Below are positions 2,938-8,211 of a DNA stretch of 64,000 nt, one piece after another. This stretch comes from an uncultured Spirochaetota bacterium (lineage in GTDB: Bacteria > Spirochaetota > Spirochaetia > SZUA-6 > Fen-1364), in the NCBI GenBank assembly GCA_963781885.1, contig CAWAHW010000002.1, forward strand, positions 640,001 through 704,000. Direction: 5' to 3'. How positions within the stretch are numbered: position 1 is the first letter of the stretch; the number at the start of each line of letters is the position of its first letter. Both the position numbers and the translations under genes were made by a program. Below the pieces are notes generated by a model. It did no database searches and was not told the DNA's origin. It was given only the letters and a program-made list of their open reading frames with translations.

Positions 2938-3561
2938 TTGGCAAAGACTCACCGGGCGGCCCGTTTGACCGCCCTTGTATTCGCCGCCGTGGCGGCCTTT
3001 GGAGCCCAGGGATTCGCACAGGCCGCCTCGTCCGGCAGCACGGTGGCCCCGTCCGTCGACGGCACGATCTCGGCCGTCTCCGGCTCGATGGTGACCCTCA
3101 CCCTCGCCGATGGAACGAGCAAGTCCGTGAAGCTGCAGGGCACGACGATGGTGCTCGCGCGGCAGGTCGCCACCCTGGACGGGATCATGGCGGGTGACGC
3201 GGTGGGAATCGCCGCGCGCCGGGACAGCAACGCCCTCGTGGCGACGAATATCAATATCTTCGCCCCGCAGATGTGGGACATCGTGCGCAAAGGCCAGTTC
3301 CCAATGGCCGACGGCCAGACCATGACCAATGCGGTCGTGGCGCAGGCGGTGAAGGGCGTGCAGGGCCGCACGCTCACGATGAAGCTGACCGAGGGCGTCT
3401 CCACGATCAGCGTGCCGGACGAGGTCCCGATCCACCGCCTGGTGGCCCTGACCACGGCGAGCCTGACCGTGGGGCTCCACGTCCTGATCCGCGGATCAGC
3501 CAACGCTGACGGCTCGTTCACCGCGGCGTCCGTAAGCTTCGACCAGTCTCCGAAGAGGTGA
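2938..3561 (+). CDS. Exported protein with DUF5666-like OB-fold repeats
   Basis: TTG start after GGAGG; signal peptide; two repeats of the type GTISAVSG..TLT..G...GD.V.I. Confidence 0.75.
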   Translation: MAKTHRAARLTALVFAAVAAFGAQGFAQAASSGSTVAPSVDGTISAVSGSMVTLTLADGTSKSVKLQGTTMVLARQVATLDGIMAGDAVGIAARRDSNALVATNINIFAPQMWDIVRKGQFPMADGQTMTNAVVAQAVKGVQGRTLTMKLTEGVSTISVPDEVPIHRLVALTTASLTVGLHVLIRGSANADGSFTAASVSFDQSPKR

Positions 3562-3600
3562 GAGACAGACGGGGAAGGCCGACGGCCTTCCCCGCGTCTC
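3562..3600 (+). terminator. Strong hairpin just after the stop codon (terminator or processing stem)
   Basis: GGGGAAGGCC-GAC-GGCCTTCCCC forms a perfect 10-bp stem with outer GAGAC/GTCTC; there is no U-tract. Confidence 0.45.
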
Positions 3601-3612
3601 GCTATTCAGAAA

Positions 3613-4467
3613 ATGGCATCTTGCGACGAGCTGTCAGGGGGAGTGGAGCGCTTGGCCGCGCTCATGAAGGGGAAGAATGTCCTTGCGCTGAGCGGCGCCG
3701 GGCTCAGCACGGAGTCCGGCATCCCCGACTACCGGGGGCCCCGCTCGATGCAGCGGCGCACGCGACCCATCTATTACAAGGAGTTCGTGGAGAGCGCGAC
3801 GGCACGCGCCCGGTACTGGGCACGCAGCACGGTCGGCTGGCCCACGGTGGCTGCTGCCCGGCCCAATGCGGGTCACGTGGCATTGGCTGGTCTGGAGCGC
3901 GCCGGCGCGCTCAGCGGCGTGATCACGCAGAACGTGGACAGGCTCCATCACGCGGCGGGAAGCACCGTCCTGGAGCTGCACGGCAGCCTTGCGGACGTGG
4001 TGTGCCTCGCCTGTGGGGCCGTCGAGGCCCGGTCGGACCTCCAGGAACGCGTCCTTGCCTTGAATCCTCAGTGGGCGGTCGGCGTCCATCGCGCTGCATC
4101 GGCTGAGCCGGACGGCGATGCCCGGGTGGAGCCGCCGGCGGACGGATCGTTCCTCATACCCGACTGCCTGCAATGCGGCGGCATGCTGAAGCCTGACGTG
4201 ACGTTCTTCGGCGAAAGTGTTCCCCGCGAGCGGGTGGAGCGCGGCTTTGCGATGCTCGCCTCGGCGGACGTACTGCTCGTCGTCGGCTCGTCTCTGGCGG
4301 TCTTCTCAGGCTATCGTTTCGTCGTGCGCGCCGTGGACGAGGGAAAGCCTGTGGCAATTGTCAACAACGGCCCCACGCGGGGAGATCCTGTTGCCACCGT
4401 GCGCATCGATGCCATGCTTGGTGAGGCGTTGCCACGGCTTGCGATGGCGCTTTGTGCTTCCGCTTGA
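3613..4467 (+). CDS. cobB: NAD-dependent protein deacylase, Sir2 family (class II/SIRT4-like)
   Basis: SGAGLSTESGIPDYRG, QNVDRLH, ELHG, two CxxC motifs, PDGDA, KPDVTFFGE, VGSSL. Confidence 0.93.
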   Translation: MASCDELSGGVERLAALMKGKNVLALSGAGLSTESGIPDYRGPRSMQRRTRPIYYKEFVESATARARYWARSTVGWPTVAAARPNAGHVALAGLERAGALSGVITQNVDRLHHAAGSTVLELHGSLADVVCLACGAVEARSDLQERVLALNPQWAVGVHRAASAEPDGDARVEPPADGSFLIPDCLQCGGMLKPDVTFFGESVPRERVERGFAMLASADVLLVVGSSLAVFSGYRFVVRAVDEGKPVAIVNNGPTRGDPVATVRIDAMLGEALPRLAMALCASA

Positions 4468-4492
4468 CACCGGCGCCGTTCGGTGATAATCT
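4464..4492 (+). promoter_or_regulatory. Sigma70-type promoter
   Basis: TTGACA (4464-4469), 17 bp, then TAATCT (4487-4492) with an extended -10 TG. Confidence 0.7.
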
Positions 4493-4496
4493 CCTG

Positions 4497-4633
4497 CCAG
4501 ATTTGATTGTTCTGGAGCCGCCTCTCTGATCTCGTCGCCAACGCGCGAATTGTGCGCTGGCAGAGGTGGCGCTTCGAAACTGAAAGCAAGCCATCGCTGC
4601 CACGGTATACAGTGCAGGATGGCTTTTTTATTT
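4497..4633 (+). ncRNA. Candidate structured sRNA or attenuator leader ending in an intrinsic terminator
   Basis: Starts at the predicted TSS. Stems are CCAGA/TCTGG and GGAGCCGCCTCT...AGAGGTGGCGCTTC (with G-U pairs, nested GCCA/TGGC and CGCGCG/TGTGCG), followed by a terminator. Confidence 0.55.
4588..4633 (+). terminator. Rho-independent terminator
   Basis: AAGCCATC...GATGGCTT stem with inner CTGC/GCAG, followed by TTTTATTT. Confidence 0.75.
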
Positions 4634-4731
4634 CCCCGTGCGGGCTCACCGCGTTGCGGCACGCCTGCACGGGCACTCCGTCCGCGGGCGGAAATCCACG
4701 AGCCTGCGAAAGCAGGGAAAGGAGGTGCGTG

Positions 4732-4779
4732 GTGAAGAACGATCAAGACATGCCTGACCAGAGGTGGTCCGGCATCTAG
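4732..4779 (+). CDS. Putative 15-aa small peptide MKNDQDMPDQRWSGI
   Basis: Perfect SD AAAGGAGGTG (4718-4727); GTG 6 nt after GGAGG; TAG at 4777; followed by a strong hairpin. Confidence 0.4.
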   Translation: MKNDQDMPDQRWSGI

Positions 4780-4794
4780 ACGGTCAAATCTGTC

Positions 4795-4838
4795 GTGGCC
4801 GCCCCGCAACTCCGCCCGGAGCGGAAGGGGGCGGCCAC
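4795..4838. terminator. GC-rich hairpin between the convergent small ORF and flavoprotein gene
   Basis: GTGGCCGCCCC...GGGGCGGCCAC with inner TCCGC/GCGGA. Confidence 0.6.
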
Positions 4839-4839
4839 A

Positions 4840-5398
4840 CTATATGCGGGCAAGCTCGCCCGCCATTGCGGCAGTTGAGTCCCGTATCGCCTTGATCTTG
4901 TACTCCCGATTCCACCTGTTCACCGACACCATGTCGAAACGACGCGCCCCGACATGCTGGGTGAGCCGCTCCATGCTCGCCAGGCAGCTCACCGCGCCAT
5001 TGCCCGGAGCCTCCCGCCGCTGCAACCAGGAGGAATGGCTTTCCCGCCAGCCGGCTGTGCTCTCCCGCGGTCGCCTCGCACCGGCGCAGGCGGTCGGTAA
5101 ATGCCTTTGCCGATTCGCTCATCTCCCCCCAGTAGACGGGCGTCACGAGCACCACGGCATCGGCGGCGCAAATGTCCCGGTGCACGGCCTGGAAGCCGTC
5201 CGCCACCTGGCACTCGTGCGTCTTGTTGCAGGTGCCCCAGCCATCATTGCACGCGCGGCAGTTGCCGACGCCGGCATCGTTGATGCGGATCTCCCGCGCG
5301 TCGACGCCTGAGCTGCGGGCGCCTTCGAGGGCAGACTGCGCGCAGGCCGCGGTGAGCCCATCCTTGTTGGGGCTGCTGCTGAGAACAATGATCTGCAT
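4840..5398 (-). CDS. Flavodoxin-like NADPH-dependent FMN reductase / iron-sulfur flavoprotein (frameshift at about 5004)
   Basis: SSPNKDGLT, CRACxxxxxxCxxxxxC, TPVYWG; the C-terminus NGAVSCL...ELARI continues in another frame after one extra base in CCCGG. Confidence 0.85.
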
Positions 5399-5400
5399 AG

Positions 5401-8085
5401 CTACCTTCCGGCCGCCGGAGCGGCAAAAGCGCGCAGCACCGTGGGAAGGATGCCGCCATTGCGGTAATAGGAGAGCTCCACCTCCGAGTTGATGCGTGCC
5501 GTCACGGCGAAGCTCTTCTCCCCGCTCGGCCCGCGTGCCGTGACCGTGAGCGTCTGTCCCGGCTTCTCCGCCGGCGCGATGTCGTAGATCTCCTCACCCG
5601 TGAGCCCCAGGCTCTGTGCGCTTTCCCCCTTTACGAACTGCAAAGGCAGGATGCCCATGCCGACGAGGTTCGACCTGTGGATGCGCTCGTAGCTTTCCGC
5701 GATGACCGCGCGTACGCCGAGGAGAAGCGGGCCTTTCGCTGCCCAGTCGCGGGAGCTGCCGGAGCCGTATTCCTTTCCCGCGATCACGACCAGCGGCACC
5801 TTTTCCGCCGCGTAGCGCTCCGCGGCGTCGAATATGGCAAGCTGTTCGCCCGAGGGAAGGTGGCGGGTGTAGCCGCCCTCCACGCCGGGCACCATCCGGT
5901 TGCGGATGCGGATATTCGCGAATGTGCCGCGGATGAGCACCTCGTGATTTCCCCTCCGCGAGCCATAGGTGTTGAAGTCGGCAGGCTTCACGCCGTTCTG
6001 CACCAGCCAGCGCCCGGCCGGGCTCTTTTCAGGGATGGCGCCGGCAGGGGAGATGTGGTCCGTGGTCACGGAGTCTCCCAGCACCGCAAGCACACGCGCA
6101 CCTGCGATCTTCGGGACGCCGGCAGGTGCGGTCGTCATGCCCTCGAAGAAGGAAGGCTTTCGAATGTAGGTGGACTGAGTACTCCACGCGTAGCGCCGCG
6201 CCTCGGGGATCGTGACATGTTTCCACGCCTCGTCCCCGTCAAAAACATTCGCATAGACCGTGCGGAACATCTCGGGCGTGAGATATTCTTTCAGCGCCTC
6301 GTCGATCTCCGCGAGGGAAGGCCAGATGTCGCGCAGGTACACCGGCGCGTCGGTGTGATCCCGGCCGATGGGCTGCGTTGCAAGGTCGATGTCCATGCTG
6401 CCCGCCAGCGCGTAGGCGACGACGAGCGGCGGCGAGGCGAGGTAGTTCGCCTTCACCTCGGGATGTATCCGTCCTTCGAAATTCCTGTTCCCCGACAGCA
6501 CGGAGACCACGGTGAGGTCGGAATCCTTGACGGCGGCGCTGATCGACGATGCAAGAGGCCCAGAGTTGCCGATGCAGGTCGTGCAGCCGTACCCCACGAC
6601 GTGGAAGCCCAGCGCTTCAAGGTACGGGCTGAGCCCGGCCCGGTCGAGATACTGTGTCACGACCTTGGATCCGGGGGCGAAGCTCGTCTTCACGGATGCC
6701 GGTACATGCAGTCCCAGGTGCACCGCCTTGCGCGCCAGGAGCCCCGCGGCGAGCATCACCGCCGGGTTGGACGTATTCGTGCAACTCGTAATGGCGGCGA
6801 TCACCACCGCGCCGTCGCGCAAGGTCTCCCGGGTGCCGCCCACCTGCACCTCTACTTCACGCGGGGTGCCATTTGCGGGCGTCCCTGCCTGGCGCCATGA
6901 GTCCTTGGCGCGGGAAAGCGGGACCCGGTCCTGGGGCCGCTTCGGACCGGCGAGAGAGCTCTCCACCGTGGCAAGATCCAGCGTGAGCGTCGTGGTATAG
7001 GAAGGTTCCTCCGCGTCCGCGCCCCGGAAGAGACCCTGCTCCTTGCAGTATCTTTCCACGAGGTCGACCAGCTCGGGGCTCCGGCCGGTGAATCGCAGGT
7101 AGTCGAGCGTCTTCTCATCCACGGGGAAGAAGCCTGCCGTGGCGCCGTACTCGGGGGACATGTTTCCGATGGTCGCGCGATCCGCGACGCTGAGAGACGC
7201 GAGCCCGGGGCCGAAGAACTCGACGATCTTGTCGACGACGCCGTGCGCGCGGAGCATCTGCGTGACGGTGAGCACGAGGTCCGTCGCGGTGACCCCTTCG
7301 CGGAGGCTGCCGTTCATCTTCACCCCGACGACCTCGGGGATGAGCATGTAGAGCGGCTGCCCCAGGAGCGCAGCCTCCGCCTCGATCCCGCCGACGCCCC
7401 AGCCCAGGACGCCGATGCCGTTGATCATCGGGGTGTGGGAGTCCGTTCCGACCACCGTGTCGGGAAATGCCGTGGCGAGCTTCGCCCCCGGTTGCCGGCG
7501 CACCTGCACGACCTTCGCGAGGTACTCGAGGTTGACCTGGTGCACGATGCCGGTTGCCGGCGGCACGACGCGGAAGTCGGCAAAAGCGCGCGATCCCCAG
7601 CGCAGAAACTCGTAGCGCTCCTGGTTGCGCCGGAACTCGAGTGAGGCATTGCCCGCCAGTGCGCGCGTGGAGCCGTAGAGGTCGACCTGCACGGAATGGT
7701 CGATGACGAGGTCGACCGGGATGATGGGGTTGATGCGCTGGGGATCGCCTCCCATCGCCTGCATGGCGTCCCGCATGGCCGCGAGGTCCACGATCGCGGG
7801 CACGCCCGTGAAGTCCTGCATCACGACCCGTGCGGGCTTGAACGGGAACTCGCGCGTCCCCGCGTCCGGTGCATTCCAGGCGCACAACGCCTGGACGTCC
7901 TCCTCACGGACGTCGAAGCCGTTCACCTGGCGCAACACCGATTCGAGCAGGATCCTGATGGAGAATGGCATGCGGGAGACCTTCCCCAGCCCGCGTGCTT
8001 CCAGCCGAGGCAGGCTGGCGTACTGGAAGCGCCCCATCGCCGATTTCAATATGCTCCATTCGATTGCAGGCTCCGCATGTGCCAT
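5401..8085 (-). CDS. acnA: Aconitate hydratase A
   Basis: QDFTGVPA, DHSVQVD, GTDSHT, SCTNTSNP, GCTTCIGNSG, YGSGSSRDWAAKG; ATG at 8085 with an AGGAG RBS. Confidence 0.97.
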   Translation of the reverse strand: MAHAEPAIEWSILKSAMGRFQYASLPRLEARGLGKVSRMPFSIRILLESVLRQVNGFDVREEDVQALCAWNAPDAGTREFPFKPARVVMQDFTGVPAIVDLAAMRDAMQAMGGDPQRINPIIPVDLVIDHSVQVDLYGSTRALAGNASLEFRRNQERYEFLRWGSRAFADFRVVPPATGIVHQVNLEYLAKVVQVRRQPGAKLATAFPDTVVGTDSHTPMINGIGVLGWGVGGIEAEAALLGQPLYMLIPEVVGVKMNGSLREGVTATDLVLTVTQMLRAHGVVDKIVEFFGPGLASLSVADRATIGNMSPEYGATAGFFPVDEKTLDYLRFTGRSPELVDLVERYCKEQGLFRGADAEEPSYTTTLTLDLATVESSLAGPKRPQDRVPLSRAKDSWRQAGTPANGTPREVEVQVGGTRETLRDGAVVIAAITSCTNTSNPAVMLAAGLLARKAVHLGLHVPASVKTSFAPGSKVVTQYLDRAGLSPYLEALGFHVVGYGCTTCIGNSGPLASSISAAVKDSDLTVVSVLSGNRNFEGRIHPEVKANYLASPPLVVAYALAGSMDIDLATQPIGRDHTDAPVYLRDIWPSLAEIDEALKEYLTPEMFRTVYANVFDGDEAWKHVTIPEARRYAWSTQSTYIRKPSFFEGMTTAPAGVPKIAGARVLAVLGDSVTTDHISPAGAIPEKSPAGRWLVQNGVKPADFNTYGSRRGNHEVLIRGTFANIRIRNRMVPGVEGGYTRHLPSGEQLAIFDAAERYAAEKVPLVVIAGKEYGSGSSRDWAAKGPLLLGVRAVIAESYERIHRSNLVGMGILPLQFVKGESAQSLGLTGEEIYDIAPAEKPGQTLTVTARGPSGEKSFAVTARINSEVELSYYRNGGILPTVLRAFAAPAAGR

Positions 8086-8211
8086 ATTCCTTCTCCTTGT
8101 AGGTGAATATACATGAGCGGACCTCATTCGGTCAGGCCCGCGGATTGTCGCCCCCTGGGCGGCAGCAGCGCGGCTTCGCGCAGCGGGAGCCTCGCCATCC
8201 CTTGCCACGCC

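Follow-up and report, generated by a model that had tools for sequence, protein, structure and literature searches.

Positions 4464-4633 of a 64,000-nt stretch of DNA from an uncultured Spirochaetota bacterium (contig CAWAHW010000002.1; the whole stretch is called the window below, and all coordinates refer to it) had been described in an earlier note as an orphan, promoter-driven structured RNA of about 135 nt with its own terminator. Comparison with relatives places the putatively transcribed part of it, 4497-4633 (the flagged stretch), within a predicted unit of about 340 nt (4464-4838), of which it is the least conserved part. The unit follows a Sir2-family open reading frame (ORF) at 3613-4467, whose TGA stop codon (4465-4467) is contained in the hexamer TTGACA. 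It comprises, in this order, a promoter, a 5' box, the hairpins P2, T1, P3, Pa and Pb, a Shine-Dalgarno sequence (SD), an ORF of 15 codons (the mini-ORF), a 3' box and the hairpin T2. These predicted features are located as follows.

4464-4469, plus strand: -35 hexamer TTGACA, overlapping the TGA stop of the Sir2-family gene; TTGACR in 23 of 26 unique homologues
4484-4492, plus strand: extended -10 element TG-N-TAATCT (TG at 4484-4485, TAATCT at 4487-4492), 17-nt spacer from the -35 hexamer
4498-4514, plus strand: 5' box, located where transcription is predicted to begin (about 4498-4499); provides the 5' strand of the helix P1
4517-4570, plus strand: P2, a long hairpin with a nested helix, predicted from the fold; lineage-variable, its sequence kept in close relatives alone
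4588-4633, plus strand: T1, a GC-rich hairpin (GCCATC..GATGGC) with a T-run; intrinsic-terminator-like candidate attenuator before the core, from the fold and the homologues
4635-4673, plus strand: P3, a hairpin inserted at genus level, with a conserved tip
4677-4692, plus strand: Pa, a hairpin of the form TCCGNC-CGCG-GNCGGA, followed by a conserved AAATCCA linker
4703-4716, plus strand: Pb, a hairpin with a GNRA-type loop; covarying, with 97% of cells paired and 2 pairs changed on both sides
4720-4727, plus strand: Shine-Dalgarno sequence AGGAGGTG, invariant apart from T or C at position 7 (AGGAGGYG)
4732-4779, plus strand: mini-ORF with GTG start, 15 codons (MKNDQDMPDQRWSGI) and TAG stop; codons 7-15 form the hairpin Pc (4750-4775)
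4777-4794, plus strand: 3' box, comprising the stop codon and 15 nt; 3' strand of P1 or, alternatively, the local hairpin Pd (4779-4794)
4796-4838, strand not assigned: T2, a GC-rich hairpin resembling repetitive extragenic palindromic (REP) sequences, between the unit and the convergent flavoprotein gene

Homologues were collected at several levels of relatedness. Among 40 relatives searched by BLAST, the flagged stretch was found in G005, as two contig variants of the same locus (91% and 84% identity), and in G019 (68% identity, E 2e-5). The stretch downstream of it, 4677-4801, was kept in 9 of the 40, with 73-85% identity in G019, G004, G015, G018, G014, G022, G023 and G024 and higher identity in G005. 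Covariance models of this core were built from 10 sequences (R1) and 17 sequences (R2). In the family search, 14 of 25 genomes gave a match at E up to 0.01, 11 of these with at least 55 bits; three weak matches at 20-26 bits were not counted. With stricter filters, the element was present in 17 of 92 genomes of the order, comprising 10 of 24 in family f1, 1 of 2 in f4, 2 of 8 in f5 and 3 of 21 in f6, and was not found in f7 (0 of 24), f2 (0 of 5), f3 (0 of 2) or f8 (0 of 5). It was likewise not found in 150 other genomes sampled from the class Spirochaetia.

A sequence pattern specifying SD, start codon, Pro-Asp codons, Gly codon and stop codon was used to scan larger collections. In the genome collection it gave 13 places, 12 of them in metagenome-assembled genomes (MAGs) titled Spirochaetota, Spirochaetia, Spirochaetaceae, Spirochaetales or Spirochaetes, and in the metagenome collection it gave 11. 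The sole match outside spirochaete MAGs, a contig of 2244 bp from an alphaproteobacterial MAG (L065), is most likely due to chance, and it was the one source not matched by R2, which matched 33 of the 34 sources (pattern places together with the earlier loci). After removal of duplicates, 27 unique sequences remained, 17 found without the pattern and 10 by the pattern alone. The element was thus found only in one group of uncultured high-GC spirochaetes, in one copy per genome, the two variants in G005 representing one locus. No second copy of the flagged stretch was seen in its own genome, where the next best match had an E value of 0.11.

A sigma-70 promoter, defined as TTGACR, a spacer of exactly 17 nt and NANNNT, was found in 23 of the 26 unique homologues with enough upstream DNA, and in these 23 it is kept at a fixed distance from the 5' box. 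The extended -10 dinucleotide TG is present in 16 of the 23; the three loci without the promoter are L058, L069 and L062. The earlier note had proposed a near-consensus promoter over the stop codon of the gene that it called cobB. TTGACA does lie over the Sir2-family stop, but GATAAT (4485-4490) would leave a spacer of just 15 nt, and the comparative reading of the -35 and -10 elements with a 17-nt spacer places the predicted start site near 4498-4499. A promoter and terminator scanner applied to 3400-5600 called neither. Its rules demand at least 4 of 6 matches in the -10 element and a short simple hairpin, which excludes both a -10 element with 3 of 6 consensus bases (TAATCT) and an interrupted long hairpin; the comparative evidence for the promoter was therefore preferred.

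The sequence of the mini-ORF and its surroundings was constrained in several respects among the 27 unique sequences. The start codon was GTG in 14, ATG in 9 and TTG in 4, with no others, and it followed the SD by 4 nt in 26 sequences and by 3 nt in one. The length was 15 codons in 26 sequences and 13 in one, the latter through an in-frame deletion of 6 nt, and the stop codon was TAG in 23 and TAA in 4. In-frame stops were absent from all 27 sequences, with the other two frames carrying stops in 17 and 13 of them. The same features of SD, start and frame were observed in the 17 sequences found by BLAST or covariance model alone. The 21 distinct peptides share a C-terminal half of the form x-P-[DEC]-x-x-[RWG]-x-G-[IVAFT] and have a variable, hydrophilic N-terminal half; codons 2-7 are unstructured and vary freely, while remaining open and hydrophilic. 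The peptide as a whole is rich in K, N, D, E, Q, R, P and G, with no hydrophobic stretch. Judging from these sequence constraints, the mini-ORF is probably translated.

The core helices were supported by compensatory changes. In 16 distinct sequences, 89.1% of the cells were paired, compared with 80.6% in shuffles and 27-43% when the partner strand was slid, although the alignment was fitted to the covariance model and leans towards its own structure. The covariation score was 0.275 compared with 0.146 in shuffles, none of 500 shuffles reaching the observed value, and 9 of 23 pairs were changed on both sides, as were all 5 pairs of Pd. The register of Pa was read from the alignments in preference to the RNAalifold consensus, which pairs Pa differently. 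The full-length RNA (4497-4845) has a predicted minimum free energy (MFE) of -180.1 kcal/mol (z -7.19). T2 is a good terminator with a T-run in most homologues; the copy in the window is without a T-run.

The two ends of the unit are complementary to each other. The 3' box together with the stop codon can pair with the first 13-22 nt of the predicted transcript (P1), and a search of up to 360 nt upstream for the best complement to the 3' box led to the stretch directly after the promoter in 17 of 26 sequences. The boxes are lineage-specific: they differ between lineages yet stay complementary. For the 13 pairs of P1, counted over 22 distinct full-length sequences including those without P1, 75.4% of cells were paired in an unfitted MAFFT alignment, compared with 24-47% when the partner was slid. 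The covariation score of P1 was 0.233 compared with 0.162 in shuffles, none of 500 shuffles scored as high, and 18 cells were changed on both sides. P1 was also part of the predicted MFE structure of the full-length RNA in 15 of 23 sequences, including that of the window. P1 covers the stop codon and its 3' flank, not the SD, and it is mutually exclusive with Pd, which uses the same bases.

The leader itself folds well. The MFE of the 4497-4633 RNA was -57.9 kcal/mol, compared with -42.2 ± 3.7 kcal/mol in shuffles (z -4.27; 0 of 200 shuffles as low). The opposite strand folds comparably (z -4.70), so the strand cannot be assigned from folding alone. The predicted fold contains every stem named in the earlier note (CCAGA/TCTGG, the long one at 4517-4570 with its nested helix, and the terminator hairpin) as well as a small hairpin in the linker, and each feature lies where it had been placed. 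The terminator of that note corresponds to a hairpin at 4588-4625 followed by six T residues at 4624-4629 and resembles an intrinsic terminator; the stem is interrupted by an unpaired base between helices and is not one continuous short inverted repeat.

Among the homologues, the architecture of the leader is preserved although its sequence diverges: in 23 of 23 leaders an unpaired 5' tail is followed by one or more variable hairpins and by a hairpin with a T-run. The 3' arm of T1 (GGRTGGC followed by T4-9) is the most constant part. P2 and T1 are fused into a single long hairpin in L059, L060, L064 and L075. In L077, P2 is absent and the leader consists of T1 alone, beginning about 7 nt after the start site. 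L062 has neither a promoter of its own nor P2, and T1 of this locus belongs to an upstream FHA-domain gene as its terminator.

The T-run of T1 and the SD are separated by 41-146 nt. No second pair of -35 and -10 elements was seen between T1 and the core in the printed homologue sequences. A sigma-54-like motif (GG-N10-GC) before the core fits the window, L037 and L040, but it fails in L057, L059, L060/L064 and L068 and was rejected. As no promoter was seen in this gap, transcription of the core would depend on read-through at T1 or, in the case of L062, on the gene upstream. The claim of an orphan, stand-alone RNA of 135 nt is hence not borne out by the comparison: the stretch is the least conserved part of the unit (of 40 relatives, BLAST recovered it in G005 alone and, weakly, in G019), the gap before the core leaves no space for a second promoter, the leader begins with a complement of the sequence directly after the mini-ORF stop, and RNA contigs bridge T1.

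These contigs come from metatranscriptomes. An index search gave seven runs from six studies of peat and wetland that contained a small share of the stretch, and contigs from four of the runs (four studies) were placed at 85% likeness. All derive from a close relative with 90-95% identity and cover the following positions.

4498-4735: contig X1, 241 nt, beginning 3 nt before the aligned part, i.e., at about 4495-4498, a weak hint of the start
4497-4894: contig X4, with a further 30 unaligned nt upstream that match the promoter region of the relative
4574-4712: contig X5, with adapter sequence at both ends
4569-4720: contig X6

T1 was bridged in 4 of 4 runs, and contigs across T1 fit read-through and a start near 4498. 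No contigs were obtained on 4300-4475 in the four runs; since the runs were chosen by the flagged stretch and rare sequence is lost from contigs, silence of the sirtuin gene does not follow from this.

On balance, the flagged stretch is probably the 5' leader of a free-standing mini-ORF mRNA or dual-function small RNA (sRNA), with T1 as an attenuator and an end-to-end helix as a lock. The promoter, T1, the core helices, the frame of the ORF and P1 are borne out by the comparison of homologues; partial termination at T1, translation of the ORF and a locking or stabilizing role of P1 are inferred. The sigma-70 promoter would start the RNA at about 4498, and the first 13-17 nt (the 5' box) would stay single-stranded while P2 and T1 form. 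Termination at T1 by some of the polymerases would yield an RNA of about 135 nt in which the 5' box is free, and the others would read through into Pa, Pb, the SD, the mini-ORF with Pc, the 3' box and T2. In the read-through RNA, the 5' box would pair with the 3' box and the stop codon, closing a panhandle (P1) that should stabilize the RNA, and a ribosome would have to melt Pc and P1 to finish the mini-ORF. Of the two options left by the earlier note, an sRNA or an attenuator of the downstream small ORF, the attenuator comes closer, and the stand-alone unit does not.

Several observations weigh against this leader-and-lock reading. For P1, neither the number of double-change pairs (4) nor the number of further pair types was above shuffles, with 371 and 425 of 500 shuffles, respectively, being as high. 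P1 is absent in L077, L062 and L071, and it is weak or different in L063, L070, L073 and two f5 sequences. The SD is just partly exposed in the predicted ensembles, with an unpaired probability of 0.15-0.61. Ten of the 27 sequences were found by the pattern, which itself demands SD, start codon, CCN-GAN, GGC and stop, so they are not independent support for the SD, the start, the motif or the stop. The conserved peptide motif is encoded by Pc, where the CC of the Pro codon is paired with the GG of the Gly codon. Some of what looks like peptide conservation could hence be due to RNA structure, and RNA and peptide constraints are inseparable there. The contigs cannot show the strand, the ends or the level of the RNA, and X4 overshoots the predicted start by 30 nt and T2 by 56 nt. 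Finally, the distribution is patchy: five genus-mates, 95-97% complete, are without the element and carry other genes directly downstream of aconitase. Given the near-completeness of these genomes, the element must be considered dispensable.

A further reading extends the leader and its lock to a self-antisense RNA switch gated by translation, for which no precedent has been described, with a leader RNA and a mini-ORF mRNA made from one promoter; this we regard as rather unlikely. The free 5' end of the leader released at T1 would be an exact antisense of the stop-codon box on the read-through mRNA, so that the 5' box would lock the mRNA in cis and the released leader would compete for the box in trans. 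The lock would be opened by a ribosome that completes the 15-codon ORF, so that the module would read out translation capacity, and the C-terminal motif (P-D-x-x-R/W-x-G-I/V-stop) might act as a nascent-chain element at termination.

It is quite doubtful that the RNA of about 135 nt ending at T1 is itself the functional product, with its free 5' box as a seed acting in trans on other mRNAs or, as a self-antisense or sponge, on the stop-codon box of the read-through mRNA. All 23 leaders folded alone leave the 5' box unpaired and end in a hairpin with a U-run, the usual build of trans-acting sRNAs; T1 is the part of the leader kept in nearly all lineages, and a complement of 13-22 nt does lie at the mini-ORF stop. 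The supposed seed is, however, not conserved and varies between lineages together with the 3' box, which indicates that the partner is the cognate 3' box rather than conserved targets in trans. The version in L077 would be just about 30 nt long and would have no 5' box, T1 is bridged by contigs in all four runs, and the genome yielded neither a further copy nor a clear target; the only base-pairing partner found was the unit's own 3' box.

Ligand or protein sensing, as in a riboswitch or a factor-dependent attenuator gating transcription through T1 into the mini-ORF, is improbable, and a ligand-sensing riboswitch in particular is unlikely. The order of promoter, structured leader, intrinsic terminator, SD and ORF is the one seen in cis-regulatory leaders of Rfam, and the conserved Pa and Pb with the invariant linker bases before the SD could form a binding site. 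No conserved aptamer-like core was found upstream of T1, though: BLAST recovered the leader in G005 and G019 alone, and P2 varies in sequence and shape and is fused or missing in some lineages. A conserved competing helix that could act as an antiterminator was not seen by eye in the printed sequences, no formal search having been run. Regulation would act on nothing but a 15-codon ORF, without a partner gene downstream. In contrast to riboswitch and attenuator leaders, the unit has no conserved ligand-binding core and no enzyme or transporter gene after it.

Known families gave no match either. A search of 3500-6000 against Rfam 15 with E up to 10 returned nothing in 4464-4840 and two chance matches, both within the sirtuin gene, which agrees with the failure of the earlier note to match the RNA to the riboswitches that it listed. 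Among 19 homologous loci searched with E up to 1, the sole match was BjrC68 on L056, with 24.3 bits where the gathering score is 39; it reflects a likeness between terminator hairpins and was discarded. Three other candidate modes of control were examined and set aside. Leaders of genus-level relatives contain a candidate anti-SD sequence (GCCNCCTCTCT) able to pair with the SD; leaders of the f6 type lack it, and it is hence not general. An iron-responsive element (IRE) was suggested by CAGTG in the T1 loop and the adjacent aconitase gene, but this motif is confined to the window and G005, the T1 loops of other homologues being short and unrelated. A CsrA sponge would have just two or three GGA sites, those in Pa lying within the stem.

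An alternative, as improbable as ligand or protein sensing, is a purely non-coding structured RNA, in which the SD-like box and the "ORF" would be structural or protein-binding and untranslated. The high degree of structure of the whole RNA (z -7.19) would suit it, and codons 7-15 lie with the stop codon and its flank inside Pc, Pd and P1, the Pro and Gly codons being paired together. Such an RNA would leave unaccounted for the restriction of the start position to GTG, ATG and TTG, the fixed distance between SD and start, the single indel being in frame, the lack of in-frame stops in 27 sequences compared with 17 and 13 sequences with stops in the other frames, and the unstructured codons 2-7, which vary freely and yet stay open and hydrophilic.

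The possibility that the boxes act at the level of DNA, either as inverted quasi-palindromic operators of a dimeric regulator or as terminal inverted repeats of a small mobile element, is considered very slight. Each box is nearly palindromic (CAG-N6-CTG type), the first of them spans the transcription start (+1, where operators are often placed) and the second lies about 285 bp downstream, and the patchy occurrence among close relatives in differing gene contexts could point to mobility. Complementarity between the boxes exceeds the palindrome in a lineage-specific manner, reaching at least 20 nt with the stop codon included, and P1 is predicted in the MFE structure of 15 of 23 full-length RNAs. 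Mismatches in P1 across distinct rows comprised 17 G-U and 10 A-C, a weak lean towards RNA of the plus strand; the corresponding counts of 6 and 1 in well-paired rows are biased by the choice of rows. The element occurs in one copy per genome, with no transposase and no target duplication seen; a miniature inverted-repeat transposable element would be present in many copies with terminal inverted repeats, and one match per genome was found.

In hok/sok, the hok mRNA is inhibited by fold-back through long-distance pairing between its 5' and 3' ends. For aapA1/IsoA1 of Helicobacter pylori, the published report (PMC5416894) describes a full-length mRNA rendered inert by a long-distance 5'-3' helix that hides the SD, a toxic peptide of 30 residues and an antitoxin that is antisense on the other strand. 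The present unit resembles such type I toxin mRNAs in its size (250-340 nt), its small ORF and the long-distance helix between its ends, which would make the full-length RNA compact and stable. A type I toxin-antitoxin-like module, in which the 5'-3' lock keeps the mini-ORF mRNA inert and the leader RNA is the antitoxin, would draw on this hallmark of aapA1 and on the complementary small RNA from the same locus. It is nevertheless scarcely credible: the peptide is a charged, hydrophilic one of 15 residues and not a small, hydrophobic, membrane-active one, P1 lies over the stop codon and its 3' flank with the SD outside, no antisense gene was found on the other strand, and there is one copy per genome.

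Transfer-messenger RNA (tmRNA), in which the two ends form a tRNA-like domain, was suggested by the end pairing, the internal ORF and a T-loop-like 3' hairpin, and was rejected. RF00023 gave no match at the locus and recognizes a canonical tmRNA in another part of the contig (G000:C2:1491275-1491625; 157 bits). The loop of Pd comprises 6 nt instead of 7, and the mini-ORF is equipped with an SD and a start codon, both of which are missing from the tag ORF of tmRNA. 6S RNA does not fit an SD, an ORF and an internal terminator; RF00013 gave nothing in the genome, although its control succeeds in just 5 of 14 known genomes.

Dual-function sRNAs such as SgrS/SgrT, RNAIII/delta-haemolysin and SR1/SR1P are free-standing transcripts with their own promoter and terminator that encode a small peptide. 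The unit resembles them in having its own promoter (23 of 26) and the terminator T2 and in standing outside any operon, with no conserved neighbour. It differs in its shorter ORF (15 codons), in the internal terminator before the ORF and in its paired ends.

The closest analogue among attenuators is rnTrpL/peTrpL of Sinorhizobium meliloti, described in PMC6614838 as an attenuator-derived sRNA with a leader ORF of 14 codons that also acts in trans. Both are small RNAs bounded by a promoter and an intrinsic terminator with an ORF of about 14-15 codons, and an RNA released by the attenuator can act, or here would act, by base pairing. In rnTrpL (PMC6614838), the ORF lies upstream of the terminator, contains consecutive Trp codons and controls trpE(G) in cis. 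Here, by contrast, the ORF lies downstream of T1 and has no repeated codon or regulatory codon run, Trp occurring in one subgroup alone, and it is followed by its own terminator rather than by a structural gene, T2 being followed by convergent or unrelated genes. The unit is hence not an attenuator of the trpL type. A full-text literature search returned nothing on the element and only analogues, namely rnTrpL, aapA1 and termination maps of Borrelia; the peptide itself was not searched, 15 residues being too short.

No neighbouring gene was common to the subgroups in an all-against-all BLAST of flanking ORFs and a Pfam search of 62 ORFs, many of the longest ORFs picked in this high-GC DNA being spurious and without a Pfam match; flanking genes were common to close subgroups only. 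The neighbours identified by Pfam included aconitase, FMN reductase, Sir2, OmpA, ABC permeases, phosphoketolase, PrkA, FHA, shikimate dehydrogenase, Lgt and others. The earlier note had mentioned similar leaders before cold-shock, DEAD-box or RNA-binding genes in other bacteria. This found no support: the neighbours are unrelated housekeeping genes with none of these kinds among them, and beyond a single order the element was not detected.

The element is convergent to the 3' end of an AcnA/IRP-type aconitase gene in four genomes at genus level, namely that of the window (gene at 5401-8208 on the minus strand) and those with the loci L040, L059 and L037. Aconitases can bind RNA; no conserved IRE-like loop was found in the element. 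The FMN_red flavoprotein gene (4784-5398, minus strand) has an apparent frameshift near 5000-5030, due to an assembly error or a pseudogene: the frame of its N-terminal part extends to 4784, and the C-terminus of the G005 ortholog lies in another frame of the window (4840-5025).

Variation was also noted at the 3' end of the unit. In L060 and L075, a hairpin of 39 nt is inserted between the mini-ORF stop and the 3' box, and in L071 about 75 nt of unrelated sequence replace the 3' box. The GC-rich hairpin of the T2 type is a REP-like repeat with many copies in the genome of the window and its genus-mates, some in tandem arrays with a spacing of about 40-42 nt; further copies lie at G000:C6:396401-396506, C4:466859-466960 and C2:1045516-1045659.

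The element is a new lineage-restricted RNA family with a conserved micro-ORF and a member of none of the compared systems. Its combination of a terminator before the ORF and an end-to-end helix over the stop codon is unusual and is not known from attenuators, dual-function sRNAs or type I toxin mRNAs. The importance of the element is limited by its dispensability, and that of the finding also by the uncultured state of the hosts. A previously undescribed, expressed RNA family is nonetheless added to uncultured spirochaetes of soil, sediment and peat, organisms without any genetics, and a covariance model and a search pattern for it are now at hand. If the lock-and-attenuator reading is true, the family would provide a compact, portable module that links translation termination with long-range RNA pairing and that could be approached in a heterologous host.

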